Counted from the first letter of the stretch, positions 27,763 to 64,000 are shown. The stretch is 64,000 nucleotides of DNA from Patescibacteria group bacterium (GCA_019454415.1 JACFOI010000003.1:14361-78360), one strand, 5' to 3'. Made by a program: numbers and translations. Notes: a model not told the origin generated them from the sequence alone.

Positions 27763-28485
27763 GTGTTGAGTTCTTCATACCACTTTAGCTGGCAAAAACG
27801 AACGCTTGACGTCTGTTTAGCGCTGACCTTTTTGATCTTTTTATTCCCGTTGTTTTGTGGCGTGGTACTGCTCGTACTCGCCACTTCCGGTACCCCCATT
27901 CTGTTTTGGCAGGAGCGGCTGGGACATAACAAGAAGCCATTCAAAATGCTGAAGTTTCGTACTATGCGCCCAGGAGCCGAACAGATGAAGGAGAAGTTAA
28001 TTCCTCATAATGAAGCTCCCTGGCCGATGTTCAAGATGAAGAACGATCCGCGTTTTACTCAAGTGGGCAGGTTTCTTTCCCGGAGTGGTCTAGATGAGCT
28101 TCCCCAATTTTTCCAAATCTTGACTGGTGAGATGAGCTTTGTCGGTCCGCGACCACTGCCAGTACCTGAGGCCAAAAGCTTACCCCGTTCGTGGGCATTT
28201 CGTTATGAGGTCAAACCCGGTATTTTATCCGAGTGGGCAATTGCGCCGGATCGGTATGCGTCACTAAAACGCTGGCGCGAACTGGAGCTGGAAACTGTTA
28301 AAAAAGGCTCACTCTTCAATGATCTGCGGATCATTGGCCGCGGGTTTTTCTTTATGGTGTACGCCAACAAAACGCTACTCACCGATAAACCGAAGGTACG
28401 AACTCGCCGTCCTCGCCCAAGTGTAGCGACGCAAAACTTGCCGATCGGCAGTCGAAAACGAGCGCCGCTTGGGTCGTTTGCGTAA
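27763..28485 (+). CDS. initiating polyprenyl-phosphate phosphoglycosyltransferase (Bac_transf; WbaP/PglC/WcaJ C-terminal-domain type)
   Basis: MLKFRTM, PRFTQVGRFLSRSGLDELPQFFQILTGEMSFVGPRP. The 3' 111 nt overlap the convergent GT4 gene. Confidence 0.85.
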   Translation: MLSSSYHFSWQKRTLDVCLALTFLIFLFPLFCGVVLLVLATSGTPILFWQERLGHNKKPFKMLKFRTMRPGAEQMKEKLIPHNEAPWPMFKMKNDPRFTQVGRFLSRSGLDELPQFFQILTGEMSFVGPRPLPVPEAKSLPRSWAFRYEVKPGILSEWAIAPDRYASLKRWRELELETVKKGSLFNDLRIIGRGFFFMVYANKTLLTDKPKVRTRRPRPSVATQNLPIGSRKRAPLGSFA

Positions 28486-29469
28486 AAGTCTTCTGAGTAC
28501 TCTATTGAAGTCCGACTGACTGCTGGCTGCAAAAGTTTCTATCAGTGGCAGTGATGCAAAATCATCAGGTAATATTCCATGTGCTAATAAAGATGGTGTG
28601 TGAACCGCTACGGCCTCTAAAATCGTGATCGGGAAGCCTTCCAGCTCCGACGGCAGGACAAGATAGCGTGCCTGGGCCAACACTTCCCATTTTTCCTGAC
28701 CAATTGCGGATCCATACCAAGTTACGTACTTACTCTGGTACTGTTGGCGGAGCTTTCGCTCATACCCGGGTGTGTTTCCGTGTGTTCCGACAATTAAACA
28801 AGGAACACCAGTGGTGGCACAAAACTCAAGCAACCACTCCACTCGTTTCTCAGGAACTAGTCTCCCCAAGTACAGTAAGTAGTCCTCTCTCGAACGAGGC
28901 AACTGAGAAGCTCTGGGCTGAGGAAGTCCCGGATAGGCTAAATGGCATGGTCGGTGAGTAATCTGCTCGATCTTTTGCGCCAGGACTTCGGTGACCGCAA
29001 AGAGTTCTGCGGGTCGAACGACTTGCATCATGGCACTGAACGCAAACCGGAAGCCCATCCGTTCCCACCGCGTCCATTTTTTCCGTTGCCAGTCTAGGCT
29101 GTGGATCGTTACCCAAACTTTCTTTCCACACAACACAGGTAACCAGGAAAAAATAGCCATGCCCGCAGTGTGATACCAAACGATGTCAGTGTGCGTTATG
29201 CAAGCCAAGAGAGAAGAGGTGAAACTGTAGCTAAGAGCTTCGAGAACGCGTCCGGGGAGTGCCCAAAGTCCTTTGACTTTCACTCGCGGGATCGGCTCGC
29301 TGGAAACGACTTGCTCCTGATACGTCGAGCGCGTCAGGACCGTTACCTCTACTTCTTTGTCCTGCTCCACCATTGCCGAGACAGCAGAGTAAACATAGGT
29401 TTCCACACCACTGGTGCCCACAAAGTCAGCAGGGAATGCTCGTGGCCCAATAATGAGAATATTTTTCAT
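28375..29469 (-). CDS. GT4-family glycosyltransferase
   Basis: EGFPITILEA C-terminal EX7E motif. GT-B fold length. Confidence 0.75.
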   Translation of the reverse strand: MKNILIIGPRAFPADFVGTSGVETYVYSAVSAMVEQDKEVEVTVLTRSTYQEQVVSSEPIPRVKVKGLWALPGRVLEALSYSFTSSLLACITHTDIVWYHTAGMAIFSWLPVLCGKKVWVTIHSLDWQRKKWTRWERMGFRFAFSAMMQVVRPAELFAVTEVLAQKIEQITHRPCHLAYPGLPQPRASQLPRSREDYLLYLGRLVPEKRVEWLLEFCATTGVPCLIVGTHGNTPGYERKLRQQYQSKYVTWYGSAIGQEKWEVLAQARYLVLPSELEGFPITILEAVAVHTPSLLAHGILPDDFASLPLIETFAASSQSDFNRVLRRLLRKRPKRRSFSTADRQVLRRYTWARTASSYLRFIGE

Positions 29470-30584
29470 GATTGCACTGATCGATGTGTTGCAAGTCTTT
29501 GTATGTTCTGAGCAAAAAGTTCGGGCCGAAACTTTTGTGCCTGTCTAAAACAATCTATCATTTTTAGTGGTCTTTTTTGAAGCTTCTGGATCACTTTCAT
29601 GAGTGACTCTACGGTACGTTCTTCAAAGAAATACCCTGTTTCCCCTTCCTTCACCGTTTCCACCACTCCACCACTCTTATATGCCAAGACTGGGACGCCA
29701 GCTGATTGTGCTTCGACCGGGACAATTCCAAAATCTTCGTCCTCTGCAGCATACAGGAGGGCAATAGCAGACCGATACACTCTACCAAGTTTTTTCTCTG
29801 GAACAAATCCCAAAAACGTTACGGACGGTCCGGCCTCTTTCTCAAGCTCTTTTCGCAGATAACCATCACCGATCACTCTCAGCGGTAAACCAAGCTGGGT
29901 ACATGCATCAACAATCAGCTTGATACCCTTCTGTTTGACTAAGCGACTGTGTGCCACGAAGTACTTTGGCTCTTTACGCGTTTTCTTCAGAACAGGATAC
30001 GATGAAAACAGCAGCTCAACCGGTGGTGGAACAACCAGCGCGGGACGTTTATAAATCTTTTTAACTCGCTGCTGGACTTCCCGTGAGTTGACGATGATCA
30101 CATCCGGCTGTTTTCCTGCTTGCTGGTCGATCTGCCGAAGCCAACTCAGAAACGTTCTCCATATGCCAATCCGCGTAAACATCGAAAGCTCATGAGCGTA
30201 GCCGTACAAGAAACGTGGCGGAGTGTGCAAATAGCAGATATGCAGCGCGTCAGGGCGTTTCTTCACCAGCTTTGAGTTATAAGAGTGGCTTGATGTGAAG
30301 ATCAGATCGTATGCCTGAAGATCAAGCCTGGCAAAGTACCGCCAAGCTAACGGCTTCAGTAATGAAAAGTACTGTTGGAGGTTTGCTAGCCAAGGCAAAC
30401 TTTGCAAAGGGGAACATCGCCAATCATATTTTCCAAACTTTTGGTCGATCTGTGGGTTAGCCCGATTGATGAAGAAGGTAAAAAGGTCAGCATCAGGGTA
30501 GAGTTTGATTAACGTCTCAAGAACCTTCTCCGAGCCGCCAAACTCAAGCAAATTATCTTGAACTATAGCAACTTTTTTCTTCAT
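29466..30584 (-). CDS. GT4-family glycosyltransferase
   Basis: EDFGIVPVEAQSAGVPVLA motif. ATGA-type coupling with the upstream gene. Confidence 0.75.
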   Translation of the reverse strand: MKKKVAIVQDNLLEFGGSEKVLETLIKLYPDADLFTFFINRANPQIDQKFGKYDWRCSPLQSLPWLANLQQYFSLLKPLAWRYFARLDLQAYDLIFTSSHSYNSKLVKKRPDALHICYLHTPPRFLYGYAHELSMFTRIGIWRTFLSWLRQIDQQAGKQPDVIIVNSREVQQRVKKIYKRPALVVPPPVELLFSSYPVLKKTRKEPKYFVAHSRLVKQKGIKLIVDACTQLGLPLRVIGDGYLRKELEKEAGPSVTFLGFVPEKKLGRVYRSAIALLYAAEDEDFGIVPVEAQSAGVPVLAYKSGGVVETVKEGETGYFFEERTVESLMKVIQKLQKRPLKMIDCFRQAQKFRPELFAQNIQRLATHRSVQS

Positions 30585-31591
30585 AATGCCGGAATCGTTG
30601 TATTGTGATACGTACGGAAGTTATAAGGTGCCAACAGGGTATCAAATCTTACGTCGTTGTACCCGCGTAAGGTTATCTTTCTGTATTCCAGTAGTCGTGG
30701 TAGCTGCCATACCGTCTCTCCCCAGATTCTCGGATAGGTCAGGATTCCGCAACTCCACGAACCATAGATCAACACCCAAGCTTGCACCAGTAAGATATTC
30801 AGGACATTTCGAAGTATCTCCCTACCGGGCCAGCAGCAAATCAGTACCCATAGAATATTTCTGTAGGTTTGATAGAGAGCGAAAGTATTGCGCCGGCCGC
30901 CGGAACTGACTGAGCCGTGGTGATACGCAATAAGTTGCTCTGCTTTTTTGATCTCTCCACTACTCATCAGGATCCTGATACTCAGATCAACATCTTCGAG
31001 GTAGTAGTAGTAGATCGGATTAAAAAAGTAGCCATACCTCTCAATGAGCTTTTCCACAAACTCCCACCGTAGCAGCATACAGCCGGCAGTTGCCAGTGTC
31101 GTCGGAATCTTCCGATCACGACAGTTTTTGGCATATCCTGACCGGAAATACTCAACGCCAAAGACGTCAATCTGGGTTGGATCTGCTGCTTCCAGCATCA
31201 CTGGCGCATAGACTGCTGGTTGTCGCTTGGAACGACTCTTCTCTTCTTCTAGTGCAAGCTGCTCAAAAAAGTTCTCTGCTATCCATGCATCGTCATTGAG
31301 CAAAAGCAGCCAACCTGAGTGATCCATACGTACTTTGGGCAACAGAAAACTCACTGCAGTGTTATTGAGATCTGCAAAGCCGGAATTGGGAGGAGCTTGG
31401 ATAAACCGAACATGTTTAAACTCGTTTTTGAATGTTCTTGAAGGCTGTGAGGTAGAGACGACACAGATCGTGATCTGCCAATGGGAGCGTTTCTTTTGTT
31501 GCTCTATGCTCGCGATTGCCTGCCGAAGGAAAGGTCGCTGAGCCATTTTCAATGTAGAAGGAATAATGACTGTAACGTGGAGATCAGTCAT
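30581..31591 (-). CDS. GT2-family glycosyltransferase
   Basis: VTVIIPS... N-terminal GT-A region, DD-like acidic motifs. Confidence 0.65.
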   Translation of the reverse strand: MTDLHVTVIIPSTLKMAQRPFLRQAIASIEQQKKRSHWQITICVVSTSQPSRTFKNEFKHVRFIQAPPNSGFADLNNTAVSFLLPKVRMDHSGWLLLLNDDAWIAENFFEQLALEEEKSRSKRQPAVYAPVMLEAADPTQIDVFGVEYFRSGYAKNCRDRKIPTTLATAGCMLLRWEFVEKLIERYGYFFNPIYYYYLEDVDLSIRILMSSGEIKKAEQLIAYHHGSVSSGGRRNTFALYQTYRNILWVLICCWPGREILRNVLNILLVQAWVLIYGSWSCGILTYPRIWGETVWQLPRLLEYRKITLRGYNDVRFDTLLAPYNFRTYHNTTIPAL

Positions 31592-31603
31592 AATAGGTAT
31601 CGT

Positions 31604-33832
31604 ATGTTTACTGCTGTTGCAGAGAGAAAACAGCTTTTCTTTTTTACGCTTTTTTTCTCTGCGTGTTATTTCTTGCTATTGTTTTTGACAGAGGGGTTTT
31701 ACTCTCTATGGATTACACCAGCCCTCTTGCTATTGTACGGTGTTACTGCTTGGTACCTTCTCTTCAGAGAAAAGACAACAGTTCGTCAGCTTGATACTAG
31801 AGTCGCGATCGGCGGAGCAGTCGTGCTATTGGTACTACTGGCTCTTACTCCGTGGAGCCTCTCAATGCCAGCTAGCATCTCGCGGTGGACAACTTTAGCC
31901 CTGGGAGGTATCACTTTCCTCTTCTTTTTTACCACGCCTATTCTACAAAAACTTTCTCTCCGAACTCTTTTTACTAGCATGATTGTGCTCCATGCCCTCT
32001 TCGTGCTATTGGCACTCTTTGTGTTTGTTATTCCGGGATTGGGCGACTTCCTGCCCAGTGAGAATCTATTGAGCTTCACTGTCGGACACAATCATTCCTA
32101 CATTTTGTATCTGATCTCCCTTCCCCTGTGTTTATACTTCAGTACGCAGAGTAAAAGAAGTTGGGTGTGGCTTCTCTTAAGCGGTGTGTTCATCTTTGGA
32201 ATCATCCTCTCTTTCAGTCGGGTAGGACTCTTTTTACTCTTGATAGAGTTGATTTACTTTGTCGTCGTTCACCTTCACGGACAGCGCCTCGCACTTCTGA
32301 AACATCTGAGAACTCTGGCACTGTTATGCAGTATCTTGGTGATGATATATGGCGGATTGTTGTTCTTGCTCTCATTTTTTCCGCAACTGAGCTATGGCAC
32401 AAACTGTATTGTTCCTTTCTGGAAAGCCCAGTTCTGTAAAAACTTTGGAGCAGAGAGTCGTCCTCACTACTGGCAACAAGCACTGCAGGGTATTAAAACA
32501 AGTCCAATCTTGGGTACTGGAGGTGGAACGTTTAGCATCCTCTCTTTCCGCTACCGTCAGCATCAGGATGAGTACTCAGCCTACCCGCACAACGAGTATC
32601 TGCAGCTGATCGTGGAGTATGGCGTTGCAGGGTGGCTGATCGTGGCAGCGATAGCGATCAGCCTGCGCTTCATGTGGCAAAGGTGGCACCAAGTCTCCGA
32701 TCTGGCACGCCTGCTTATTTTTCTGAGTACGGTAACCGCGTTTGACTCGCTTTTCAACTTTAACTGGAGTTTTGTAGGCATCTTTGTGTTGGAGTCTCTT
32801 CTGTGGGCCGTGACGCTCAAAACAATCCACCTGGAGTTAGCTTCCAAAACTAAGAAAAGTAGCAGTCCACGCCTCATTTTTTTGGCTCTTCTGAGTGTAG
32901 GAGTGCCTCTCTGTTGGTTGTCTGCACGGTTTCTGTCAGCTGAGCTCCTGCTCAATCAACGCGACGAAGAGTATCTGCGACGTTTTCCTTATATTTCAGG
33001 GCGGGCCGAGCGAGCGTACTTTGACTCACAGACTTCTTCCGGCACTAAGGAGATGATTGAGGATCTGTATCGGAACAACGAAACCCTTGCTTGGCTGGCT
33101 GCGAGCAGGGCGGTAAGTCCACATACACAGCGGGATCTTTACCAGCGGTACTTAGAGCTCAATCCGATGAATCATGAGGCTCGGGTCCGTTTGATGATCG
33201 CTGCTACTCAAACCAATGATCCAAAGATTGTACTTACTCAACTGAACTGGCTATTGGATTTTTATTCTGTGACCGAAAAGCATACGATCAGGGACATTGA
33301 GCCCCAGTATTTGGAACGATTGATCAACTATGCGAACTCACTCAGTGCCGAAAATTCTGCTACGGCAGTGGACGTTACGCTGCTGGCATATCAATTTGAA
33401 CCTTGGCGGATAAATGAAGTGCAAACGATTTTTCTTCTTCAGCCACAAAAGTTTCCTCAGCAAGATGTTGCCAAGTTGCTCGATTCACTTGCTCCCTACC
33501 GACTCCAGTTTTATCTTAGTTCTCTCAATCCGTGGACCTGGGAGAAGATGCTTACTGCAGGCACCCATGAACGCTGGGCGGATATGAATCTCTATCTCAA
33601 ACTTATCTTGGTCTATACAGATTGGGATCCGCATGTTGTCTGGGCTACTATTTCTCGACTAATCACCAGTAAGTTAAAGGATCCTGAGTTCTCCGATTCT
33701 GCCCCAAAAAAGAAGGCTTTCTTAGATGCCTGGAGAAACAGTCTTGAAACCCTGGAAAAATTTGGTACTGTTGGCGATAAGCCTCTCGACACTAGTGGAT
33801 GGTCAGAGCAGATTGAGTCGTTTGCCCATTAA
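31604..33832 (+). CDS. Wzy_C (O-antigen ligase/PglL-like) polytopic membrane protein fused to C-terminal TPR-like domain
   Basis: Roughly 12 TMs. Signature loop YPHNEYLQLIVEYGVAGW. C-terminal roughly 300 aa soluble helical repeats (TPR-like). Confidence 0.75.
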   Translation: MFTAVAERKQLFFFTLFFSACYFLLLFLTEGFYSLWITPALLLLYGVTAWYLLFREKTTVRQLDTRVAIGGAVVLLVLLALTPWSLSMPASISRWTTLALGGITFLFFFTTPILQKLSLRTLFTSMIVLHALFVLLALFVFVIPGLGDFLPSENLLSFTVGHNHSYILYLISLPLCLYFSTQSKRSWVWLLLSGVFIFGIILSFSRVGLFLLLIELIYFVVVHLHGQRLALLKHLRTLALLCSILVMIYGGLLFLLSFFPQLSYGTNCIVPFWKAQFCKNFGAESRPHYWQQALQGIKTSPILGTGGGTFSILSFRYRQHQDEYSAYPHNEYLQLIVEYGVAGWLIVAAIAISLRFMWQRWHQVSDLARLLIFLSTVTAFDSLFNFNWSFVGIFVLESLLWAVTLKTIHLELASKTKKSSSPRLIFLALLSVGVPLCWLSARFLSAELLLNQRDEEYLRRFPYISGRAERAYFDSQTSSGTKEMIEDLYRNNETLAWLAASRAVSPHTQRDLYQRYLELNPMNHEARVRLMIAATQTNDPKIVLTQLNWLLDFYSVTEKHTIRDIEPQYLERLINYANSLSAENSATAVDVTLLAYQFEPWRINEVQTIFLLQPQKFPQQDVAKLLDSLAPYRLQFYLSSLNPWTWEKMLTAGTHERWADMNLYLKLILVYTDWDPHVVWATISRLITSKLKDPEFSDSAPKKKAFLDAWRNSLETLEKFGTVGDKPLDTSGWSEQIESFAH

Positions 33833-33848
33833 CGCCTCCAACAAAAAC

Positions 33849-34706
33849 ATGGCGAGTGCAAAGTATCCTTTTTTTTCTAGCTACCCACGTGTGTGCGGAG
33901 TAGTTTACGCGCTAAAGAGTGACACAATTCCGGATAAACGCATCTCTTTGGCACTGGCATCCGGAAATGAATGGGAGGCGCTACGTATAGCTTTGGAAAC
34001 TACGGCTCGAAGACATCGGTATATTGCGCTGTGTCTCTATTTTTTGACTAAGCGGCTGCATTGGCTTCCACCGTTGGCCGTGACGTTGTGGTTTTGCCGA
34101 ATAATTGGACCCGCTAGCTCCTGGTTCGAGTACCTACAACGGAGTTCAACTCGGCCATCATTGTTAACGGCGACTTCCATCTACACCCAACTTTTCTCTA
34201 AAAACAAAAAAGAAACTGGCTATATCCTCGACTTGGGTTGCGGACTAGGGCAGCTTCCCCAACGATTCCCCCGGCAACCTCATCGCCGTTGGATCTGCGT
34301 AGATAAAAACTTCTTCTCACTCTTTTTAGCCCAGCTTTATCACCGTCGCTCTGACATCATCTATGCGTGTGCTGACGTTGAGATTCAACATCTCTTCCCG
34401 AAGAGCTTCTTCTCTTCAGCTGTTTGTATTGACTGCTTCGACTTTATCTACCAGAAAGACAGCTTCCTGAGATATATCGCTCAAATCTTGAAAAAAGGTG
34501 GGACGTTTGTGATGATGAACATTCACGAGGAGCAGCCGGGAACTGAGCTCTGGGGATATGGGATCAATCGCACAGAAGTCAAAAAACTTTTGTTGGCCGA
34601 CTTCCAGAAAATTACTTGGCATGACCTGAACTTCCCTCTCCATAGTCAAAAACGTTCTTTGAGGGAAGTAGATTCGATGAGGTATAGCTTTGTAGCGTAC
34701 AAGTAA
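33849..34706 (+). CDS. class I SAM-dependent methyltransferase
   Basis: ILDLGCGLGQLP motif I. Start ATG 33849 after Wzy stop. Confidence 0.6.
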   Translation: MASAKYPFFSSYPRVCGVVYALKSDTIPDKRISLALASGNEWEALRIALETTARRHRYIALCLYFLTKRLHWLPPLAVTLWFCRIIGPASSWFEYLQRSSTRPSLLTATSIYTQLFSKNKKETGYILDLGCGLGQLPQRFPRQPHRRWICVDKNFFSLFLAQLYHRRSDIIYACADVEIQHLFPKSFFSSAVCIDCFDFIYQKDSFLRYIAQILKKGGTFVMMNIHEEQPGTELWGYGINRTEVKKLLLADFQKITWHDLNFPLHSQKRSLREVDSMRYSFVAYK

Positions 34707-34730
34707 AACTACCGTATTGATGAGTGTTTT

Positions 34731-35846
34731 ATGAAGATATTAGCGATTCTCGAACGCAATCCCGGAGGAGAGTACGCGGCTGCTCGAGCCCTCTTACATG
34801 CGTTAGAAGATAACGACTGTCAAATCGAGCTCGAAGAGCTATCTCCGCTTCAAACAACCGGTCTTTTTTCATACTTTGGCTGGATTCTTTTTTCGGTCTT
34901 CCGATCAGCGAAGTTGGCGGCGCACTACAAGGAAGGACGAGATGTTTATACGACTACCTATGTAGCTGCCCTTGGCATTTTACTACTGCGTCCCTTCACC
35001 CATCAAAAGCTGAGCTTTCATTATCACGGGAGTCGGATTCCGGCACCAGCTGGGAGAGACTGGCCGGCACTTCGTAAGTTGACACAGTCAGTTAAACACA
35101 CTGTGGTTATGCAGTTACACCGGATTGTCTTTTCAAAAACTGACCTACTGATAGTCCCCTCTGCCAAAATCCTTGAACAACTTCACACCGAGTTCCCCAC
35201 ACTAACCGATCGGGTGGCTCTTATTCCGAATGGTGTTGATACTCAATTTTTCCAACCGATCTCAAATGCAGAAAGACAGTCACTCCGTAAGCAGTACCGC
35301 ATTCCCAACGGCTCGTTTGTCTGTTTAGTCGTTTCTCGGGTCAACGCCGAAAAAGGCTTGATTGAATCCGTAGAGCTTGTCCGGGCCATCCAACGTTTCA
35401 GCAGGCATCGAGTTTTGGCGGTTTTTGCAGTTCCCAGTCAAGGGAACGATAGCCAGTATCTGCACCAGTTCTTGACGCATCTGCGTTCTTCGGAGGTTCC
35501 GCATCTGATTTTTGAAGATCATCAACAGCTGAATCAGCTTTACCAACTCAGTAACTGTGTTTTAAGTTGTTCACGACGGGAGGTATTTCCCCTTGTTCTG
35601 CTGGAAGCTGCTGCCTGTGGTACCCCATACTTTGCTGAGCCGAACGGCGCAATAGAGTATTATCTTCAACAGATCGATCCACAGCTAGTTCTGCCTCAGT
35701 CTCAGCAAGCTGCTGCCCGAAGAGTATTGGAAGAGACTCATCAAAATAAACTATCGGAGAAACTACGCGCTTTCGCTGTTTCTCACACTTGGCAGGCAAG
35801 TGCTGTCCGCCTTATGCAAAAACTGGAACAGCTCACAATCAGATGA
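34731..35846 (+). CDS. GT4-family glycosyltransferase
   Basis: GT-B length. VFPLVLLEAAACGTPYFAEPNGA motif. Confidence 0.7.
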   Translation: MKILAILERNPGGEYAAARALLHALEDNDCQIELEELSPLQTTGLFSYFGWILFSVFRSAKLAAHYKEGRDVYTTTYVAALGILLLRPFTHQKLSFHYHGSRIPAPAGRDWPALRKLTQSVKHTVVMQLHRIVFSKTDLLIVPSAKILEQLHTEFPTLTDRVALIPNGVDTQFFQPISNAERQSLRKQYRIPNGSFVCLVVSRVNAEKGLIESVELVRAIQRFSRHRVLAVFAVPSQGNDSQYLHQFLTHLRSSEVPHLIFEDHQQLNQLYQLSNCVLSCSRREVFPLVLLEAAACGTPYFAEPNGAIEYYLQQIDPQLVLPQSQQAAARRVLEETHQNKLSEKLRAFAVSHTWQASAVRLMQKLEQLTIR

Positions 35847-52387: not shown

Positions 52388-53252
52388 GCCGCTGCAGACT
52401 ATTTGGAAAAGAGTGCGTTCCCTCGGTTGGATTGACCTTATCGGCGTATGTATTTTTCTGGGCATACTGAGTGTCGCTTTCTTTTTCTTTTTACGAAAAG
52501 CCGACTATGCGTACATCACTCTTCGTGTCTCCCAATCCGATAACATGAATCCCTACAGTGATCAGGCACCTGTTTGGTTTATTGAAAAGATTCAGCCCGG
52601 CTTAAAAGAGACTGACGGCCTGGGCAGGGACAACGTCGTGATTGAAAAAGTTCATCGTTTCAAATCTTCTGACTTGAATCAGGATTTTTACGTCGACCTC
52701 AAAGTCAGATCTGTCTACAACTCCAGAACTAAACAGTTTACCTACAATGGATCCACCTTGCTGATCGGCAGCTACCAGTCTTTTAAACTTCAGGGAATTC
52801 AGCTTTCCGGAGTGATCGTCGATGTTCGCGAGCAAGATACACCGCGTGAAGAAAAAACCTTCCTGGTGGAAGGGTACGTGAATCCGGCCTACAACGACGA
52901 ACAGTATAGTGTGGCCAACACAGTGGTGGACGGTATCAAGAACTATCTGGCCGACACATTGTTTACCGGTCTCAAGACAGTCGACGTAGATGGTCAGGCC
53001 ACCGCCGAGATTATTAGTATTCAAAAGCGTCCAGCTAGACGTCAGTTTGTTTCCGGATCGTCCTTTGTGAGCGTTCCCGATCCTGAGAGACAACGAGTTG
53101 AGATGACTTTAAGAATCAAGGGGGTCAAAATTAATGATGCCTATTACTACAAGAACGAAGCACCCATTGTCGTAAACTCAACGATCTATTTGACGTTCCC
53201 TCAAAGTAATATCAACTTTACCCTTACTCATTTTGAGGAAGAAAAAAAGTAG
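52371..53252 (+). CDS. N-terminally anchored uncharacterized protein (paralog of 42699-43511)
   Basis: Same architecture and alignable blocks (YITLRV/YITIRF, SRTKQFTY/TRTKLYSA). Confidence 0.45.
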   Translation: MNLKSKPLQTIWKRVRSLGWIDLIGVCIFLGILSVAFFFFLRKADYAYITLRVSQSDNMNPYSDQAPVWFIEKIQPGLKETDGLGRDNVVIEKVHRFKSSDLNQDFYVDLKVRSVYNSRTKQFTYNGSTLLIGSYQSFKLQGIQLSGVIVDVREQDTPREEKTFLVEGYVNPAYNDEQYSVANTVVDGIKNYLADTLFTGLKTVDVDGQATAEIISIQKRPARRQFVSGSSFVSVPDPERQRVEMTLRIKGVKINDAYYYKNEAPIVVNSTIYLTFPQSNINFTLTHFEEEKK

Positions 53253-53267
53253 AAAAATATTTCTTTC

Positions 53268-56061: not shown

Positions 56062-56091
56062 TTCCCCATCCTCATGATACATTCAGAGCCG

Positions 56092-56967
56092 ATGAAAGCA
56101 GCGACCTCTGCTCGATCTACGTATCCGAAAATTAGTATCGTCACTCCATCCTATAACCAAGGACAGTTTTTGGAGCAAACAATTCGCTCTATTCTAGATC
56201 AAGGCTATCCGAATCTCGAGTACATTATTATTGATGGCGGCTCGACCGATGATTCCAAAAAAATTATCAAAAAGTATGCTCCCCAGCTGAAGTATTGGGT
56301 CAGTGAGAGAGATCAGGGACAGGCAGACGCCATTAATAAAGGCTTCTCACATGCAACCGGCGAGATCATGGGCTGGCTCAACAGCGATGATATTTTGATG
56401 CCGGGCTCACTGCACTTGATCGCAAAGATCTTTGGGGAGCTTCCTCAAGTTGACTGGATAAGTAGTACTACCCAGACTATTACACAGCATGGTCATGTGC
56501 ATCATCTCGGCCTCCGTCCCGTGTTCTTCCAGAAACTGATTGCTGCTGGTTGGTATCATGGACTGGGACTGGGCTTCTTAATGCAGGAAGGGACATTCTG
56601 GCGCCGCTCCCTTTGGGAAAAAATTGGCGCAAAGGTCAATCAACTTCATTACGGGATGGACTTTGAACTCTGGAAACGTTTTGCAGAGCACACTGCTCCA
56701 TTGGCTGTACACGTGCCCTTGGCCGCGTTTCGTCTAAACCCCCAGCGCAAGTCCAAAGCTATTCAGCAGTACTATCAGGAGATTGGGGTTCAACTGCCGC
56801 TCTTTTTCACCTATCTAAGTAAAGGTCTACGTCTGGGTCTACAGTTACCTCGCAAACTTAGACTCACGCAACAGCTTTACTATGACTTGGGAACTGAACG
56901 ATGGCAGTACACACCCGATATTTTCTCCCGACTGACCGGAAAAGATCAACCAAAGAGCTTTGAATAG
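56092..56967 (+). CDS. GT2-family glycosyltransferase
   Basis: ISIVTPSYNQGQFLEQTIRSILDQGYPNLEYIIIDGGSTDDS. Confidence 0.7.
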   Translation: MKAATSARSTYPKISIVTPSYNQGQFLEQTIRSILDQGYPNLEYIIIDGGSTDDSKKIIKKYAPQLKYWVSERDQGQADAINKGFSHATGEIMGWLNSDDILMPGSLHLIAKIFGELPQVDWISSTTQTITQHGHVHHLGLRPVFFQKLIAAGWYHGLGLGFLMQEGTFWRRSLWEKIGAKVNQLHYGMDFELWKRFAEHTAPLAVHVPLAAFRLNPQRKSKAIQQYYQEIGVQLPLFFTYLSKGLRLGLQLPRKLRLTQQLYYDLGTERWQYTPDIFSRLTGKDQPKSFE

Positions 56968-56971
56968 AACT

Positions 56972-57736
56972 TCATGCCTTGGTATTGCGCACTTGGGTAA
57001 AAAAGATTCTCAGTAAGAAAAGCGGCGTAATAACTAAATATCGCTGCCAGAGACGGCGGGGCTCATTGATCAAACGGAACAGCCACTCTAATCCGTTTCG
57101 TTGCATCCATCTGGGCGCCTGGTTGACAGTCCCAGCCAGGAACGGAATCGCTGCTCCAACGCACCAATAGGTAATCGGCATTTTTAATGTATCCCGCAGA
57201 TACGTTCCTAGTAGTACTTGATTCGGTGAACCAATTCCGATCCAGACAAACTTCGGGACAAAGCCTTTGATCAGCTTGCCGAGTCGTTTCCGTTCCTCGG
57301 GATCTGTGCTATCCCCAACTAAGATCAGTTGGGCTGTTTTTTGTTTAATTTTTTGGTGAAATTTTTTGGCAAGCTCTTCATAGACCGTTAGATTCGGGCA
57401 AAGGATAGTGTACTTTGCGTTGGGATAGCGATCTAAAGTAGCAGCCAGGATATCCGGACCATACACCCGTTCTACTTGTTGTTTGACCTTACCTCGGAAC
57501 CACCAGACCAGCGGCATTCCGTCTGTCGTCAAAAAATCTACCTTCTGGTAGGTACTGGCAATCGTGGGATCGTTATCGACTCTAGCTAAGTCGTAGAGGG
57601 TACACGGCAATACCACCTGCCCTCGGGGGGACTTATTATTCCATAGCTCATCCATGACCATATTGAAGGGACCAACAATGAAACACAGATTGACAGTTCC
57701 ACAGCTGAGACTAAGCCGAAGAGGTAGTGAGTTCAT
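56972..57736 (-). CDS. GT26 WecG/TagA/CpsF-family glycosyltransferase (N-acetylmannosaminyl/linkage-unit transferase type)
   Basis: FLTTDGMPLVWW, TYWCVGAAIPFLAG, WLFRLINEPRRLWQRY. Confidence 0.75.
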   Translation of the reverse strand: MNSLPLRLSLSCGTVNLCFIVGPFNMVMDELWNNKSPRGQVVLPCTLYDLARVDNDPTIASTYQKVDFLTTDGMPLVWWFRGKVKQQVERVYGPDILAATLDRYPNAKYTILCPNLTVYEELAKKFHQKIKQKTAQLILVGDSTDPEERKRLGKLIKGFVPKFVWIGIGSPNQVLLGTYLRDTLKMPITYWCVGAAIPFLAGTVNQAPRWMQRNGLEWLFRLINEPRRLWQRYLVITPLFLLRIFFTQVRNTKA

Positions 57737-58470
57737 GATAAACGTAGCTCTACATTGTTCTTAAAAGCCCGGCCTGCTACACACTCTGGATACTGCCATA
57801 TCCCATTCTGAAAAAGCAATGGCACTTGAGAGTTATATACAGTAACGGCTTCTATTTTATCTGGTGAAGACCATGAAAGCGACGTAGGTGAAGTTACCAC
57901 TTGCCAAAACTGAGGCCACCGCCAGTTACTCAGTTGAAGTGCATAAGGGATATCAACGTAATACAGCAAACGTTCTGTGGGAACATATTTTTCAAGGATA
58001 CGTCGAACTAAAAGATGATCTGCATGCTGTCCTACTCCGAGCGGACAAACAACTACCGCCTCTGTTTTGACTTCCTGCTGGAGCCTAAGCTCCAGTTGAG
58101 ACTGCCAGGAGGCTGAATCCTTAATCGTTCCGGCAAATAACTCTTGGTGAGTCTGATAAGTAGGAGTAGAGTCCTGTTCACGGAAGCCAGCGTCGACCAG
58201 ATTCAGCCACTTATAACTAGCCACTCCTAACTTTCCCATGCTTTCTCTATCTTCTTGTCCACGTACCTTTTCAAACTCTGTTACCGACTCTACATGGCCT
58301 TTTTTCATGAACTCAATAGAGTCCTTTGAGAGGTGCTCTGCTCCGAACCTCGTAAAAACGGTTATGACTTCTACTTTCATACCCTTTTTTGCCCAAGCCA
58401 GAATATGCTCCCCGCAGGATAAGCTGGCATCATCGAAGTGGGGTGAAAAGACTTGAATGTTTACACTCAT
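57733..58470 (-). CDS. PIG-L/LmbE-family N-acetylglucosaminyl deacetylase
   Basis: VFSPHFDDASLSCGEHI (HxDD motif). Confidence 0.7.
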   Translation of the reverse strand: MSVNIQVFSPHFDDASLSCGEHILAWAKKGMKVEVITVFTRFGAEHLSKDSIEFMKKGHVESVTEFEKVRGQEDRESMGKLGVASYKWLNLVDAGFREQDSTPTYQTHQELFAGTIKDSASWQSQLELRLQQEVKTEAVVVCPLGVGQHADHLLVRRILEKYVPTERLLYYVDIPYALQLSNWRWPQFWQVVTSPTSLSWSSPDKIEAVTVYNSQVPLLFQNGIWQYPECVAGRAFKNNVELRLS

Positions 58471-59567
58471 TTTTCTGCCTGATCAATAAGGTGATGTGTC
58501 ATGATGTAATCATAGAGGATCTGGGCAAAGAAACGGTTTGCAGCTGCAGAGGGATGCTCTTCTCTCTTGCTGACTGTGTAGTTAACTCGAAGCTCTTCAC
58601 CGCTATCCGGCTGATCCGCTAAGACATTTTTTCCTGTTTTTTTCAACTCATTCACGTACTCGGAAAGTGCCGAAGTCTGCCAAAAGAAGCTATCAAAAGC
58701 AATATAGACAGCACGCTGCGTGGGTAATTTAGACAAAACTGTCTGGAACATACAGTAGTTCTTGGTATTTGGGTTAGTAAACGTTTCATCTACACGTTGG
58801 TGAAGATCATACGCTTGCGCATCAACCGGGTTTTTATCGTTGTATGGAAAGTCATAGATGGCTCTGATTTGGTCACAGCCATGTTCTATTTGAGCGTACG
58901 CATCTGGGTCATACCGATCGGCATTATTGAAGAGCAAGTCATTGTCCACGATCCCAAAAATAAAAAGATCCACATCCGGATGCTGTTCTAAAATAATTTG
59001 ATACTTCAGATAATTATCAAATATATTATCGCCGGCCATACCATACGAAAGAATCTTAACTTTACTTTCCCCTCCGAGCATCTTTTCGAGTACATGGGTG
59101 AACCGGTCGTTTTCCCTGAGGCCTTGCCCCCACACATAGGAGTCACCGATAACTGCAATCGTAAAGCGATGCGGTGTCGAGGTACCGAGGACTGTCGGCT
59201 GTCTTCCTTCTTTTTTATCTTGAATAAATTGGTGAAGCTGAATCATCTCCGCCGCTCTTTTGCCAAAGGCCTCATACTTCCGACCAGGCGAAAAGTAACC
59301 ATGAGCAGCAGAACGCTGGTAAAAGAAAAGATCAAAGTAGTAACGCTCGGCAACCTGATAGCAAACAACCACTGAAAGAGCCATGGAAAGTACGACCAGT
59401 CCCACACGAAAAAGTGGAGTCTGCCAACGATGAGACTCTATAGTTTTTATTGAGCTTTCCTGAATCACAAAAGCATGTAAATAAATGCACTTACCGGAGA
59501 AGCAGTTGTAAAGGTGACCAGGATGCCGAAGATGACAATCACGATCACTGGTGGAATAAGCCACCAC
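58467..59567 (-). CDS. SGNH/GDSL-family hydrolase paralog
   Basis: GDSYVWGQG. Alignable with 41728-42690 over the full length. Start uncertain. Confidence 0.6.
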   Translation of the reverse strand: MVAYSTSDRDCHLRHPGHLYNCFSGKCIYLHAFVIQESSIKTIESHRWQTPLFRVGLVVLSMALSVVVCYQVAERYYFDLFFYQRSAAHGYFSPGRKYEAFGKRAAEMIQLHQFIQDKKEGRQPTVLGTSTPHRFTIAVIGDSYVWGQGLRENDRFTHVLEKMLGGESKVKILSYGMAGDNIFDNYLKYQIILEQHPDVDLFIFGIVDNDLLFNNADRYDPDAYAQIEHGCDQIRAIYDFPYNDKNPVDAQAYDLHQRVDETFTNPNTKNYCMFQTVLSKLPTQRAVYIAFDSFFWQTSALSEYVNELKKTGKNVLADQPDSGEELRVNYTVSKREEHPSAAANRFFAQILYDYIMTHHLIDQAEK

Positions 59568-59600
59568 TTTTTGTTCTTCATTAAAAATTGGAACAGCTCT

Positions 59601-61442
59601 TTATACATGCTTCCTCCGTGATCTAGTTGTCTTTACTTTTTTCGATAAAACTCTTTTTCTTTTTTTCCTGATGACAAATTGATCAAGTACTAAAACGTCA
59701 ATGTCAGTATGCAGAAAACAGTTGATCGCATCTCTTGGAGTACAGACAATCGGCTCTCCTCGAATATTAAATGATGTATTAATAATAACTGGTACACCAG
59801 TTTTTTTCCTATACTCATCGATCAAATCATAGTATAGCGGATTATCATCTCGATGGAGAGTCTGGAGACGACCAGTTCCGTCCACGTGCACCACCGCGGG
59901 GACGTCTCGTTCTCCAATCTTAGGTTTGAATGGATAAACCATCAGCATGTACCGAGCGGACTTTGGTAATTGTCGGTCAGACTTAAAGTAGGTTGAGGTG
60001 TACTTCTCTAAAATGACTGGAGCAAATGGCCGGAAGAGCTCTCGATGCTTAACTTTTTCATTAATGATATCGCGCATCTCTACTGTGGCAGCCGAAGCCA
60101 GAATGCTCCGAGAACCCAGCGCACGTGGTCCCCACTCCATTCTGCCTTGGAACCAGCCGATGATCTGCTGGTCGGCGACCATCTTGGCAATATCTTTGGC
60201 TAATGTGCGTTTACTCTTTACAAACTCATACTTTAAACCAGCCTCCTTGAGCGCGGTTTGAATCTCGTACCAGCTGAAGGAAGGTCCCAAGAAAGGGGTG
60301 AACTCTTCCGAAAATTTCTTATGCAGCTGAGCTGAGGCTTTTTCGTTTAGCCGGGGCAGACCGAGCTCCTCCGGATGAAAGCGAAGGTACAGAGCAGCTC
60401 CCATGGCGCCGCCAGCATCACCTGGATCCGGCGGGATAAAAAGCTTTTTGTATGGAGTTGAGCGCAACAGTTTGCCGTTCATGACCGAGTTCAGCGCGAC
60501 ACCACCGGCTAGACAGAGGTGTGGAGTGCGGTGGTGTTTGTACTCAGCATTCAGGATATGGAAAACAATCTCTTCAAGTTTGGCCTGAAGGGATGCCGCA
60601 ATGTTCTCGTAGTGTCGCTCCATCGGACTTTCCGGTTTGCGAGTGGGGTAGCCCAACAACTTCTCAAGCTTCTCTGAGTACATGTGATCCGACCAGTCGA
60701 AGTCAAAGTATTCCATGTTGAGCGAAAAGCTTCCGTCAGGATGCAAGGTTATGAGCTGATCAAGCTTGTCCTTAAAAGGCTCAGGGTCACCATAGGCGGC
60801 AAGTCCCATCACTTTATACTCTGCGTCGTTCACCGAAAAACCCAGATACGCAGTCATCGTGCTGTACAACAGCCCGAGTGAGTGAGGAAACTTTATCTCC
60901 CGATCAATCGTCAGTTTTTTTCCTTTTCCATAGCCGACCGTGGTCGTTGCCCACTCTCCTACTCCATCTAAAGTCATAACTGTTGCTTCAGGGAAGCCGG
61001 ACAGATAGTAGGCGCTTGCTGCATGGGCTAGGTGGTGTTCAAGATAAAAGACTTTTCCGTAGTAGTTCAGTTCATCTTTCAGAACTTCTGAGATCTTCAA
61101 TTTGATGTTTAGCCAAGAGCCAAAACTGTTTTGATACACCCCGTAACTTTTGGGGAAGTGCTGAAGATGTTGGTGGATCACCCGATCAAACTTAATGATC
61201 GGCTTCTCATAAAAAACGATTGCATCAAGCTCATTAGCTGCCAGCTTTCCTTCATTTAGGCAGTACAAGATTGCTTGCTTCGGAAAGTTGTTATCATGTT
61301 TTTTTCGAGTAAAACGCTCTTCAGCTGCAGCAGCCACGATGGTGTCATCGACTATTAAACACGCAGCCGCATCGTGATAGTAACAAGAGATTCCTAAAAT
61401 TTTCATACGTTCCCACTCGCTAGTACATTGCTTTAATGTCAA
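59601..61442 (-). CDS. NodU/CmcH-family carbamoyltransferase
   Basis: MKILGISCYYHDAAACLIVDD N-terminus (Kae1/HypF-like fold), 613 aa. Confidence 0.85.
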   Translation of the reverse strand: MTLKQCTSEWERMKILGISCYYHDAAACLIVDDTIVAAAAEERFTRKKHDNNFPKQAILYCLNEGKLAANELDAIVFYEKPIIKFDRVIHQHLQHFPKSYGVYQNSFGSWLNIKLKISEVLKDELNYYGKVFYLEHHLAHAASAYYLSGFPEATVMTLDGVGEWATTTVGYGKGKKLTIDREIKFPHSLGLLYSTMTAYLGFSVNDAEYKVMGLAAYGDPEPFKDKLDQLITLHPDGSFSLNMEYFDFDWSDHMYSEKLEKLLGYPTRKPESPMERHYENIAASLQAKLEEIVFHILNAEYKHHRTPHLCLAGGVALNSVMNGKLLRSTPYKKLFIPPDPGDAGGAMGAALYLRFHPEELGLPRLNEKASAQLHKKFSEEFTPFLGPSFSWYEIQTALKEAGLKYEFVKSKRTLAKDIAKMVADQQIIGWFQGRMEWGPRALGSRSILASAATVEMRDIINEKVKHRELFRPFAPVILEKYTSTYFKSDRQLPKSARYMLMVYPFKPKIGERDVPAVVHVDGTGRLQTLHRDDNPLYYDLIDEYRKKTGVPVIINTSFNIRGEPIVCTPRDAINCFLHTDIDVLVLDQFVIRKKRKRVLSKKVKTTRSRRKHV

Positions 61443-61647
61443 TAGGTCGGCCGTGTTTTTCCCAAGTTGAAGTCACTCCCTTCTTTTCAAGAAACTCTAC
61501 GCCCATTAACTTTGCAAAGATGGAAGTCAGTCCGAACCCCAACAGATAGATAGCTTGGAGAAAGATCCAGGTAAAGACTCGCTGTTGGAGAAGACGTATT
61601 TTTTGAAAAAAGGAAATGATTTGATTCCACATATGATTTTTTATCCC

Positions 61648-62757
61648 TTAATATGCCCTATTTTGCCACATTTTGTGGGCGTCTTCCCATCTCCTCGTAG
61701 CCTTGGCGCGAACGTCTGGTGGTATAAACTGCGTTGAGAGCTTTGCAGGAACTCGCCAGCTATTCGCCCAGATGAAACCATAACTGAAAACCGGGTCCGT
61801 TTTACGTAACCTTACCTCCTGGAATCGTATCTCGCCAGCCTGAATTTGTTTACTGAGCTCTTCGTTATCAAAGAAAATTGGCTGCTTCTTTCCTTGGAAA
61901 GCATTCCTAACCATCTTTCTGGGTGCGGGAAAAATTCCCCACTCTCGTTCAACAAATAGGTGCTCCTGGAGTCCAGAGACGAACAGGACTCCGTTATTTT
62001 TGAGGAGCTCTGGGCTGGAGGCCTGCTGCAACACCGGAACCGGGGCCTGCAAACTTTGCAAGGTATCGATCAGCGTTATGACGTCTAAGCTGTGCGGTCG
62101 TACCAGACGCAAAAAATGCGCATCGGCACAGATACGGATGACGTTTTCCCCAGAATAGAATGCCTTGGACAGAAAAAGATTACTAAAGTTCGAGTCCAGC
62201 GAGATGATCTTTAACTTCGGATACGCCTGCTGCATCTCAGTAAAGTTGTTGACTATCCCGGAACCGACATCTAACCAGAGGATCTTTCGCTGACGCTGAG
62301 GTCGCACCAGCAAGGCTGCTAGCGGAAAGTGAATCGCCAATGCATCCTGCCACTCATCGCGGGTAAAGTAGTATTTCACCAGATGTTTTGGCAGGAAGAG
62401 TGATAGAAGCCTTGCGCACTGCACCTTGCCGATCTTTTGGAGAAAATCGGTTGAAAGGAATCGGGAGAGTAAAGGTTTACTCCGTTTTATCCATATCTGC
62501 TCGGGATGAAACTTTCTTCTCTGGGTCAAACCTAAAAGAACAGCCGCCGTGAAATCTTTCTGCCGGAGATAATCAAGAATTTGCCGATTTAACGGCTTAA
62601 AGAGATACAGGATCCCTTCAATAATAGGGAACTCATCACAGTTACAGACGAGCGAGCCGAAAACGATCTGCTGGCCGTGTTTTTTCCAGATTGCACCGAT
62701 TTTGAAATGTTCATAACAGAGTGGGCACTGAAGAAGCTTGACGTCACTAAGTAGCAT
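61648..62757 (-). CDS. SAM-dependent methyltransferase with N-terminal Trm112-like zinc-ribbon-type domain
   Basis: LLQCPLCYEH...CNCDEFPIIEGILYL then LDVGSGIVNN motif I. Confidence 0.55.
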   Translation of the reverse strand: MLLSDVKLLQCPLCYEHFKIGAIWKKHGQQIVFGSLVCNCDEFPIIEGILYLFKPLNRQILDYLRQKDFTAAVLLGLTQRRKFHPEQIWIKRSKPLLSRFLSTDFLQKIGKVQCARLLSLFLPKHLVKYYFTRDEWQDALAIHFPLAALLVRPQRQRKILWLDVGSGIVNNFTEMQQAYPKLKIISLDSNFSNLFLSKAFYSGENVIRICADAHFLRLVRPHSLDVITLIDTLQSLQAPVPVLQQASSPELLKNNGVLFVSGLQEHLFVEREWGIFPAPRKMVRNAFQGKKQPIFFDNEELSKQIQAGEIRFQEVRLRKTDPVFSYGFIWANSWRVPAKLSTQFIPPDVRAKATRRWEDAHKMWQNRAY

Positions 62758-63718
62758 GGTCGTTGTACCACTGCGCTGTTCTTTGCAGACCGTCCTCCAA
62801 AGTAATAACCGGCTGCCAACCAGTCTTGCGTGTCAGGCGTGAAGAATCAAGCCACGACCGTCGCTGTTCCGTAAGGGAACGATCCTGATAAGTAATGTTT
62901 AGTTTTTTCTTAGCAAGAGAAGCACACAGCTCTGCAAGCTTGTGTGTAGTAGTAGGAATGCCGGTACCTACGACAAAAACGCCGGTGCATCCATGTTCTG
63001 CTACTGCTACATTTGCGGCCACCACGTCATCGACATAGATATAGTCGCGTTCATGTGTGCCGTCTCCGTAGATAACAAGTGGCTGACCCTCACTGAGGAG
63101 ACTCATAAACCTTGCAACCACCCCCGCTTCACCGTCCAAAGACTGCCTGGGTCCGTAGACATTCGCATAGCGCAAGCTGGCTACCTTTACTCCGGATTGT
63201 TGACTGTACCAATTCCAATACAACTCAGCAGCATACTTCGCGGCTCCATAGGGTGAGACTACGGCGATCTCCGAACCTTGGTGGTACGGAGGATTCTCTA
63301 ACCCACCGAAAACAGCCGAAGAAGAAGAGAAAACTATCTGAGTAGGGTTATAGCGATCAGTATCCGAGAGTTTGAGACAAGCTTGGATGAGGCTGAGTGT
63401 GCCACCAATGTTACTTTGGGCATCTTCCAGTGGTCGCTTGAGGGCAGCTCTGAGTTGAGAATGTCCCGCCAAATGGTAAATAGTTTTAGGCTGATGAGTA
63501 GAGATAATTTTGATTAATTGATCATTTTTATTCAGATCCATTTCATAAAACTCAACACCCGAAGGAAGGTTCGCCTTCTGCCCACTACTTAAGTCATCAA
63601 TCACGATGACTTTCTTCCCTCGTTTGACCCAATACTCTGTGAGATGGGAGCCGATGAAACCGGCTCCACCGGTAACCAAAACAGAAGCTGTGATATGTTT
63701 CCCGCTCATTACTTCCAA
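62747..63718 (-). CDS. NAD-dependent sugar epimerase/dehydratase (GalE/SDR-extended family)
   Basis: VLVTGGAGFIGSHL Rossmann motif. YxxxK region. Confidence 0.8.
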   Translation of the reverse strand: MEVMSGKHITASVLVTGGAGFIGSHLTEYWVKRGKKVIVIDDLSSGQKANLPSGVEFYEMDLNKNDQLIKIISTHQPKTIYHLAGHSQLRAALKRPLEDAQSNIGGTLSLIQACLKLSDTDRYNPTQIVFSSSSAVFGGLENPPYHQGSEIAVVSPYGAAKYAAELYWNWYSQQSGVKVASLRYANVYGPRQSLDGEAGVVARFMSLLSEGQPLVIYGDGTHERDYIYVDDVVAANVAVAEHGCTGVFVVGTGIPTTTHKLAELCASLAKKKLNITYQDRSLTEQRRSWLDSSRLTRKTGWQPVITLEDGLQRTAQWYNDHAT

Positions 63719-64000
63719 GTCTTTCTGTAGGCGGCTACGACTTCCTTGCCACCGTCCAGTTTAACTTTCCCTTTCTCTAACCACACAAAGCGTTGATAGT
63801 GGGGCTCAATAAAACTCATCACGTGACTGACAGTGATGATGGTCTTATTCTGGTGAAAGAACTCCTCAATACGGTTAAAGCATTTCTTCTGAAAGTTGGC
63901 ATCACCTGTGGCGATCATTTCATCAAGCACCAGAATGTCCGGATCTGCGTGGACAGCCACGGAAAATCCGAGTCTGAGCTTCATTCCCTCTGAGTAAGTA
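63709..64000 (-). CDS. ABC transporter ATP-binding protein (Wzt/TagH-type polysaccharide exporter), 5'-truncated by window edge
   Basis: Walker B ILVLDE and H-loop VSH in the C-terminal 91 aa. The N-terminal part lies beyond 64000. Confidence 0.65.
   Translation of the reverse strand, partial: TYSEGMKLRLGFSVAVHADPDILVLDEMIATGDANFQKKCFNRIEEFFHQNKTIITVSHVMSFIEPHYQRFVWLEKGKVKLDGGKEVVAAYRKTWK

Follow-up and report, generated by a model that had tools for sequence, protein, structure and literature searches.

A 64-kb stretch of DNA from a Patescibacteria group bacterium (64,000 nucleotides (nt); GCA_019454415.1, JACFOI010000003.1:14361-78360), referred to here as the window, holds in positions 27763-64000 the larger part of a conserved ~40 kb cluster for making lipid-linked sugar chains, moving them out of the cell, and attaching or extending them there, in a small-genome member of the Patescibacteria (Candidate Phyla Radiation, CPR). 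The extracellular step falls to four ligase-like enzymes with Wzy_C domains and two transferases predicted to have the GT-C membrane fold. We tentatively read the cluster, at a probability of roughly 0.45, as its host's principal locus for assembling envelope glycans, inherited vertically, and as a counterpart of the surface-layer glycosylation (slg) clusters, presumably acting on surface proteins and carrying added decoration modules. Patescibacteria are established as lacking lipopolysaccharide (LPS) and lipid A; this, together with an outward TPR domain on the long Wzy_C proteins and Ser/Thr/Pro-rich proteins encoded beside the initiating transferase, makes a protein-acceptor model reasonable, and protein O-glycosylation is plausible.

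Open reading frames (ORFs) of the 20-64 kb region were mapped and then scanned with Pfam and NCBIfam; gene searches covered the 64-kb window and the 4 kb past its end, read on the near-identical metagenome contig L001 (68 kb in all). Coding density is essentially 100%, with many 4-nt gene overlaps, and almost every item in the inventory of the first-pass annotation was recovered. The layout is that of Geobacillus S-layer glycosylation, which comprises a Bac_transf initiator, cytoplasmic glycosyltransferases, a methyl cap, Wzm/Wzt, and the Wzy_C transferase WsaB (PMC2943079); the locus likewise contains an initiating transferase, glycosyltransferases (GTs), a methyltransferase, a Wzm/Wzt pair, and Wzy_C-TPR proteins. 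It shares with the slg clusters of Geobacillus stearothermophilus NRS 2004/3a and Paenibacillus alvei (WsaP, WsaC-F, Wzm/Wzt, WsaB; WsfB) the gene set, a monoderm cell, and a TPR-associated transferase, the TPR being fused in WsfB and supplied for WsaB by the adjacent WsaA (PMC2943079); this likeness is one of layout and domains, not of compared sequences. Unlike slg, the locus encodes four Wzy_C proteins, in two architectures, where slg has a single one, adds two GT-C enzymes and a polyprenyl-phosphate-sugar synthase, contains no rml genes, has no recognisable S-layer protein gene beside it, and resides in a CPR host. Three glycoconjugate machineries had been described as contiguous here although normally separate. 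The multi-module character stands (a polyprenol-diphosphate pathway, a polyprenol-phosphate-sugar/GT-C pair, and an ABC exporter), but the separateness does not, as the same set makes up the slg layout (PMC2943079) and also that of ABC-dependent O-antigen loci with WaaL.

All four Wzy_C proteins score above the PF04932 cutoff of 31.7 bits (45.2-66.7 bits), and this density is real and conserved across relatives. Two of them, Wzy_C-long #1 (31604-33832, + strand; 742 amino acids (aa), 61.8 bits) and Wzy_C-long #2 (47307-49616, - strand; 769 aa, 45.2 bits), combine a membrane domain with a C-terminal TPR-like domain and are 28% identical over 618 aa; the Wzy_C-TPR architecture that had been proposed therefore applies to these and not to the two short proteins. 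The mechanical ORF of Wzy_C-long #1 spans 783 aa from 31481, and its likely start is M42 at 31604; the resulting 742-aa form is that of MBW7944002.1 and abolishes a 111-nt overlap with the divergent GT2 gene. Although a word-indexed search had returned a family of only 15 proteins, this picture was overturned by an exhaustive hidden Markov model (HMM) search, which places at least 400 representatives (clusters at 50% identity) in the family at E<=1e-30, mostly full length and 650-1100 aa long. Only two members carry a named source, both Patescibacteria.

Eight residues are invariant in 67 diverse members of the long family: G151, R195, C259, R267, G285, G287, H310, and G321. R195, R267, and H310 correspond to the catalytic Arg/Arg/His common to WaaL (R215/R288/H338 in E. 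coli) and PglL (R224/R298/H349) (PMC3643930), and equivalent SR and H motifs are visible in both short proteins. Compared with the PDB, a profile of the 67 sequences matched the ligase WaaL (7TPG) at the catalytic loop (E 2e-4), this being the only solved structure matched by the membrane domain, while profile positions ~490-713 match many TPR proteins, including the TPR domain of OGT. The larger profile was needed for this, as an earlier, smaller one had yielded one weak TPR motif and left WaaL unmatched. We infer about 13 transmembrane (TM) helices, with the catalytic loop (R195/R267/H310 and a Cys pair) and the TPR domain both outside the cell; a C-terminal TPR motif is reported in WsfB and PglL (PMC2943079). 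Together with GT-C #2 (below), the long Wzy_C proteins are the fastest evolving in the locus, with 35-41% identity to their orthologues in relatives L005, L007, and L012 as against 50-75% for their neighbours, as expected of glycan- or acceptor-specific enzymes.

Candidate acceptors lie directly upstream of the initiating transferase gene (27763-28485, + strand) and on the same strand. One is a 168-aa bitopic protein with a single TM helix and a Ser/Thr/Pro-rich tail (25598-26104; 57% Ser/Thr/Pro in a 40-aa window), and the other is a 518-aa surface protein (26194-27750) comprising an fn3/purple-acid-phosphatase-N domain, a Big domain, a stalk of SPSPSP type (70% Ser/Thr/Pro), and a C-terminal IPRSG motif with a TM anchor (Pfam). 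These are the only proteins in the 64-kb window with segments of at least 55% Ser/Thr/Pro. The two genes are separated from each other and from the transferase gene by gaps of 89 and 12 nt, respectively; the 518-aa protein is probably co-transcribed with the transferase, and the arrangement is kept in the congener L013. PglL prefers low-complexity Ser/Ala/Pro-rich acceptor regions, which the stalk resembles. The C-terminus of the 518-aa protein (27640-27750) runs from the stalk through IPRSGSTE to a hydrophobic helix and a charged tail, which resembles a sortase-type sorting signal; in the L013 protein (8438-9976) the corresponding motif is LPESGSTE.

Export would be provided by an ABC transporter, of which the window itself holds only the C-terminal 94 codons of a Wzt/TagH-type ATPase (63719-64000, - strand). 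Their translation is identical to that of the full 265-aa ABC_tran protein on L001, which lacks a C-terminal carbohydrate-binding extension and is followed past the window end by a 252-aa ABC2_membrane permease, a phosphoribosyltransferase (PRTase), and the UDP-galactopyranose mutase Glf. The permease and ATPase form the pair (Wzm/Wzt or TagG/TagH) that defines an ABC-dependent glycan pathway. The PRTase was considered as a DPA-type (UbiA-like) arabinose donor enzyme and rejected, as it is a soluble PF00156 protein of the purine-salvage type. As the first-pass annotation had noted, a Wzx flippase is not recognisable in 27763-64000; family scans found neither Wzx nor a Wzz/PCP co-polymerase there or in the 4 kb beyond, where a conventional Wzy-dependent locus might have had them. 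The sole flippase of the MOP family in the window is MurJ, the lipid II flippase, outside the cluster (22615-24306, + strand; PF03023 254 bits; TIGR01695 269 bits, above the equivalog cutoff of 235.6).

A second route to the outer face is indicated by a membrane GT2 (38779-39978, - strand; PF00535 98 bits, three C-terminal TM helices) that resembles polyprenyl-phosphate-sugar synthases. Its best NCBIfam matches are AglJ and a dolichyl-phosphate-hexose transferase, both below their cutoffs, and its orthologues carry GT2_TM_C. Beside it lies GT-C #1 (40015-41811, + strand; 598 aa), of a family with no Pfam model, and further along GT-C #2 (53268-54881, - strand; a 537-aa ORF, 522 aa in its database form), of a lineage-restricted family. 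Neither has a significant match in Pfam (E<=10), NCBIfam, or the PDB sequences, even with family profiles (104 homologues collected and aligned for GT-C #1, 11 for GT-C #2), so that only predicted structures resolved the assignment. The models reach a pLDDT (predicted local distance difference test) of 91 for GT-C #1 and 77 for GT-C #2 (AlphaFold2), and the top 27 Foldseek hits of the latter are all GT-C proteins (Pmt4, STT3, PglB, ArnT with a TM-score of 0.45, PimE, AftA/B, DPY19). Both polytopic proteins are predicted to have the GT-C membrane fold, and each has an invariant acidic pair in the first loop, D63 D64 in 40 sequences of the GT-C #1 family and D48 E49 in the 11 of the GT-C #2 family. 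The earlier description of these proteins as PMT/ArnT-like holds for the fold but not for family membership: PMT_2 matches GT-C #2 at E 4.2, reaching E 0.0097 in 2 of 11 family members, and does not match the GT-C #1 family. The two were also considered as paralogues, which was rejected because profile-profile comparison found the families unrelated.

The GT-C #1 family has more than 100 homologues, including some in Proteobacteria and Opitutaceae, and some of ~1000 aa. In two distant proteobacterial genomes (L015 6001-7938, L016 6001-7884) a gene of this type again adjoins a GT2, in one of them with a DedA/VTT protein between the two. This recurrence supports a pairing of donor synthase and GT-C enzyme here, as had been proposed, and the combination of GT-C #1-type protein, GT2, and DedA/VTT looks like an undescribed Arn-like three-part module. 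A polyprenyl-phosphate-sugar synthase beside a GT-C protein with an acidic first loop is also the layout of GtrB/GtrA/Gtr*, ArnC/ArnT, CsbB/YfhO, GacI-L, and Ppm1/Pmt. Unlike these systems, both GT-C families here are without matches in Pfam, NCBIfam, and the PDB sequences and are mutually unrelated, and no GtrA-type flippase is seen. Decoration modules of this kind are commonplace in systems that make wall polysaccharides or LPS (Gtr, Arn, CsbB/YfhO, GacI-L).

The two short Wzy_C proteins each have a bitopic partner. Wzy_C-short #1 (43508-45064, - strand; 518 aa, 58.6 bits) is followed, with a 4-nt overlap, by a DUF4330 protein (42699-43511, - strand; PF14221 53.9 bits), and Wzy_C-short #2 (50834-52387, + strand; 66.7 bits), with a 17-nt overlap, by a 293-aa DUF4330-like protein (52371-53252, + strand) 26% identical to the first. 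The members of each pair are probably translationally coupled, and the pairing is kept in L005, L007, and L012. As searches for DUF4330 returned neither a PDB match nor any literature, the function assigned to it below is a guess.

The remaining genes fit the same scheme. The initiating phosphoglycosyltransferase is small, of PglC size, with one TM helix (Bac_transf PF02397 170 bits), and matches only the C-terminal catalytic part of the EPS_sugtrans/WbaP models in NCBIfam. The about 10 GT2/GT4 enzymes counted initially are six GT4 or GT4-like proteins and four GT2 proteins by Pfam. Three of these (GT4, 28375-29469; GT4, 29466-30584; a weak GT2, 30581-31591; all - strand) are joined by 4-nt overlaps, consistent with an operon. 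The others, apart from the membrane GT2, are a GT4 at 34731-35846 (+ strand), a GT2 at 44968-45786 (+ strand), a 526-aa GT4-like protein at 45767-47347 (+ strand) and its 418-aa GT4 paralogue at 49616-50872 (- strand), a GT4 at 54826-56082 (- strand; 124 bits), and a GT2 at 55978-56967 (+ strand; 104 bits). A SAM methyltransferase (33726-34706, + strand) precedes the GT4 at 34731. The TagA/WecG GT26 (56972-57736), the PIG-L/LmbE deacetylase (57733-58470), and SGNH/GDSL hydrolase #2 (58467-59567) are encoded on the - strand with consecutive 4-nt overlaps, and are joined by a carbamoyltransferase (59601-61442, - strand; PF02543 272 bits, PF16861 233 bits) flanked by small membrane ORFs of 47 aa (DUF5989, called in L001) and 70 aa (both within 59465-61632, - strand). 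A methyltransferase-like protein (61648-62757, - strand; in the near-identical contigs L001-L004 a 369-aa gene with no Pfam match occupies this position) and an NAD-dependent sugar epimerase/dehydratase (62747-63718, - strand) complete this end of the window.

Two further types of protein may act outside the cytoplasm. SGNH/GDSL hydrolase #1 (41728-42690, - strand; PF13472 E 5e-6, below cutoff) has an N-terminal TM helix, as does a 997-aa protein (35789-38782, + strand) that combines a PQQ-type beta-propeller (PF13360 145 bits) with a DUF5060/apiosidase-like region (PF16586 60 bits). The latter, with a weak Apiosidase match of glycoside hydrolase (GH) 140 type, is kept in L005, L007, L012, and L013 and is a putative extracytoplasmic glycan-processing enzyme, judging by its domains. 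An all-against-all BLAST comparison found five paralogue pairs: Wzy_C-long (783/769 aa, 28% identical), Wzy_C-short (518/517 aa, 24%), DUF4330 (270/293 aa, 26%), SGNH (320/366 aa, 36%), and GT (526/418 aa, 26%). Identities of 24-36% in all five suggest an ancient internal duplication into two parallel sub-pathways.

The cluster had been called an island, which is misleading. Proteins MBW7943991.1, MBW7944002.1, and MBW7944020.1, from a Patescibacteria group bacterium, are identical to or clustered with proteins of the locus, and the metagenome-assembled genome UBA924 is a relative. The locus is collinear over its full length in relatives whose proteins are 35-75% identical, and GC content is only slightly lower than in the surroundings (0.44-0.48 versus 0.48-0.52), so a mobile origin was rejected in favour of vertical inheritance. 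If the relatives' contigs of 1.17-1.28 Mb approximate genome size, the locus takes up ~3% of the genome.

Under the slg-like reading, the small phosphoglycosyltransferase would start the glycan on polyprenyl phosphate and the GT4, GT2, and GT26 enzymes would extend it, with the epimerase, Glf, and LmbE supplying or editing sugars and the methyl- and carbamoyltransferases modifying or capping the chain. Wzm/Wzt would carry the lipid-linked glycan outward, where the two Wzy_C-TPR enzymes would transfer it en bloc to an extracytoplasmic acceptor, most likely Ser/Thr-rich stalks on surface proteins, of which the SPSPSP protein is an example. The short Wzy_C proteins, each with its DUF4330 partner, could be polymerases or second ligases. 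In parallel, the membrane GT2 may make a polyprenyl-phosphate monosaccharide that the two GT-C enzymes add on the outer face, and the SGNH hydrolases and the propeller protein may remodel the product by trimming or acyl editing.

Several points weigh against this reading. Sequence by itself cannot tell O-oligosaccharyltransferase (O-OTase), ligase, and polymerase roles apart within Wzy_C, and none of the four proteins falls into a curated NCBIfam subfamily. The PglL_A motif (PF15864), which separates PglL from WaaL and was among the models the first-pass annotation had named for a search, gives no signal in any of the four even at E<=10, nor does Wzy_C_2. The orientation of TPR domain and catalytic loop was worked out by hand from hydropathy and the positive-inside rule, no dedicated predictor being used. 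The adjacency of the Ser/Pro-rich proteins is seen only in the congener L013 (60-85% identity), the model leaves a gap in having one exporter serve what look like several pathways, and an acceptor of any kind is our inference. A GH-like enzyme, Glf beside Wzm/Wzt, and TagA would be just as usual in a wall or capsular polysaccharide locus, and the census of Wzx, LCP, Wzz, and TagO covers the window and the 4 kb beyond, not the rest of the genome.

The last points lead to the alternative that fares best, although we consider it unlikely on balance: the locus would make only wall or capsular polysaccharide, with the Wzy_C proteins polymerising or ligating one or two secondary wall polymers or exopolysaccharides. 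No protein would be glycosylated, and the polymers would either be released or be anchored to peptidoglycan by LCP enzymes whose genes lie elsewhere. TagA/WecG, LmbE, Wzm/Wzt, and the adjacent Glf do resemble ABC-dependent galactan and wall-polymer loci, polysaccharide trimming is typically the task of partners like the propeller protein and the SGNH hydrolases, the paralogue pairs suggest two polymer pathways, and a short Wzy_C with DUF4330 could be a polymerase with its co-polymerase; the absence of PglL_A and the proximity of penicillin-binding proteins (PBPs) and MurJ also agree with it. However, Wzx and Wzz/PCP are missing as described above, no LCP ligase was found in the 64-kb window and the 4 kb beyond, and the window contains no TagO, TagB/F, or TagD, leaving the TagA-like and TagGH-like proteins as the only teichoic-acid pathway components. 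Moreover, fusions of Wzy_C with an outward TPR domain have been reported among O-OTases (WsfB, PglL) but not among Wzy polymerases, and the Ser/Thr/Pro-rich surface proteins are apparently co-transcribed with the initiating transferase.

It is improbable that the Wzy_C proteins instead join the exported glycan to a membrane lipid, so that a molecule resembling lipoteichoic acid (LTA) or a lipoglycan would take the place of LPS in a monoderm CPR host. Among solved structures, the catalytic loop has its nearest homologue in a lipid-acceptor ligase, the WaaL of Cupriavidus metallidurans (7TPG), which also shares the Wzy_C domain and Arg/Arg/His set. The Wzm/Wzt/Glf neighbourhood resembles galactan-type O-polysaccharide loci. 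In a cell without lipid A another lipid could serve, and GT-C/polyprenyl-phosphate-sugar modules decorate LTA in Firmicutes (CsbB/YfhO). Transfer to lipid A-core itself, the role of WaaL, is unlikely given a host in an LPS-lacking group; genes for lipid A or its core are absent from the window, the locus is of another type than LPS core loci, and the long proteins differ from WaaL in having one more TM helix and a TPR domain of ~300 aa and in belonging to a set of four paralogues. As for other lipids, no LtaS or YpfP/UgtP-like glycolipid-anchor synthesis genes were recognised in the window, and the TPR domain points to a partner that is a protein or a polymer.

Transfer to pilin had been proposed along with transfer to surface proteins, from the proximity of a pilin gene, pilN/pilO, and the SPSPSP protein. 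The surface protein, PilN (24344-24940, + strand; PF05137 E 5e-11), and PilO (24927-25595, + strand; PF04350 E 7e-6) are indeed there, and the order MurJ-PilN-PilO is kept in L013, but the pilin-like ORF (22019-22387, - strand) is not adjacent, lying 5.4 kb from the cluster on the opposite strand and 9 kb from the nearest Wzy_C gene. Its GFTLIEL motif is preceded by no ATG, GTG, or TTG, and the frame is closed upstream by a TGA at 22471-22469. If the T-run at ~22411-22414 were one T longer, the ORF would be continuous with an upstream ATG, giving MIRLLSNTPRRVRSSHFVFLGFTLIEL; the missing start could reflect an assembly error, a pseudogene, or slippage. UGA recoding (code 25) was rejected as the cause, as long ORFs throughout the window read cleanly with code 11. 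Immediately upstream of MurJ, L013 has a GT4 gene in place of the genes for S20 and pilin, and a LepA homologue is also undetected there.

PglL, TfpO (PilO), and PglS share with the proteins described here the Wzy_C domain, the Arg/Arg/His residues, and, in PglL, a reported TPR motif; to our knowledge, all characterised members come from Gram-negative Proteobacteria. Genes of this type tend to adjoin their pilin target in the same orientation (21 of 31 PglL homologues; tfpO lies downstream of pilA), and here no transferase gene adjoins the pilin ORF. Dedicated glycosylation of the pilin by Wzy_C or GT-C enzymes of TfpO/PilO or TfpW type is thus very improbable, even with PilN/PilO and the pilin-like ORF within 6 kb, a GT-C enzyme, TfpW, that glycosylates pilin in P. 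aeruginosa Pa5196 (bioRxiv 10.1101/2020.04.19.049825), and pilin glycosylation predicted, not shown, in Saccharibacteria (PMC11623550), given the position, strand, and start of the ORF, its absence from that position in L013, and the lack of PglL_A.

Further upstream, at 8078-14375, a GH18 chitinase-like gene lies between the genes of two class A PBPs (822 and 830 aa). With MurJ downstream of them, these genes make much of the window an envelope-biogenesis neighbourhood. Two large ORFs on the - strand, 898-2523 (541 aa) and 16812-18707 (631 aa), have no significant Pfam match.

Surface glycan systems combining Wzy_C, ABC, and GT-C components are already known in kind; new here are the CPR host, the four Wzy_C proteins of two architectures, and the two unannotated GT-C families. 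Patescibacteria live attached to other microbes, and their surface chemistry is little known. A study of Saccharibacteria pili calls their glycosylation "unexplored" (PMC11623550). The locus offers a TPR-fused Wzy_C family, a Wzy_C/DUF4330 pair, two unannotated GT-C families, and two candidate acceptor proteins. More speculatively, and with the odds clearly against it, the Wzy_C-TPR family might be general protein O-OTases, perhaps Patescibacteria-wide, that coat Ser/Pro-rich surface proteins, possibly including pilins, with ABC-exported, GT-C-decorated glycans, the short Wzy_C/DUF4330 pair being a new polymerase/co-factor module; this would be the first defined surface-glycosylation system of the CPR and a determinant of host attachment. 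Should the protein-acceptor model prove false, the locus would nonetheless specify what is likely the lineage's major polymer of the wall or surface; if the model is correct, it would extend Wzy_C-type O-glycosylation to the CPR and could add O-OTases for glyco-engineering.

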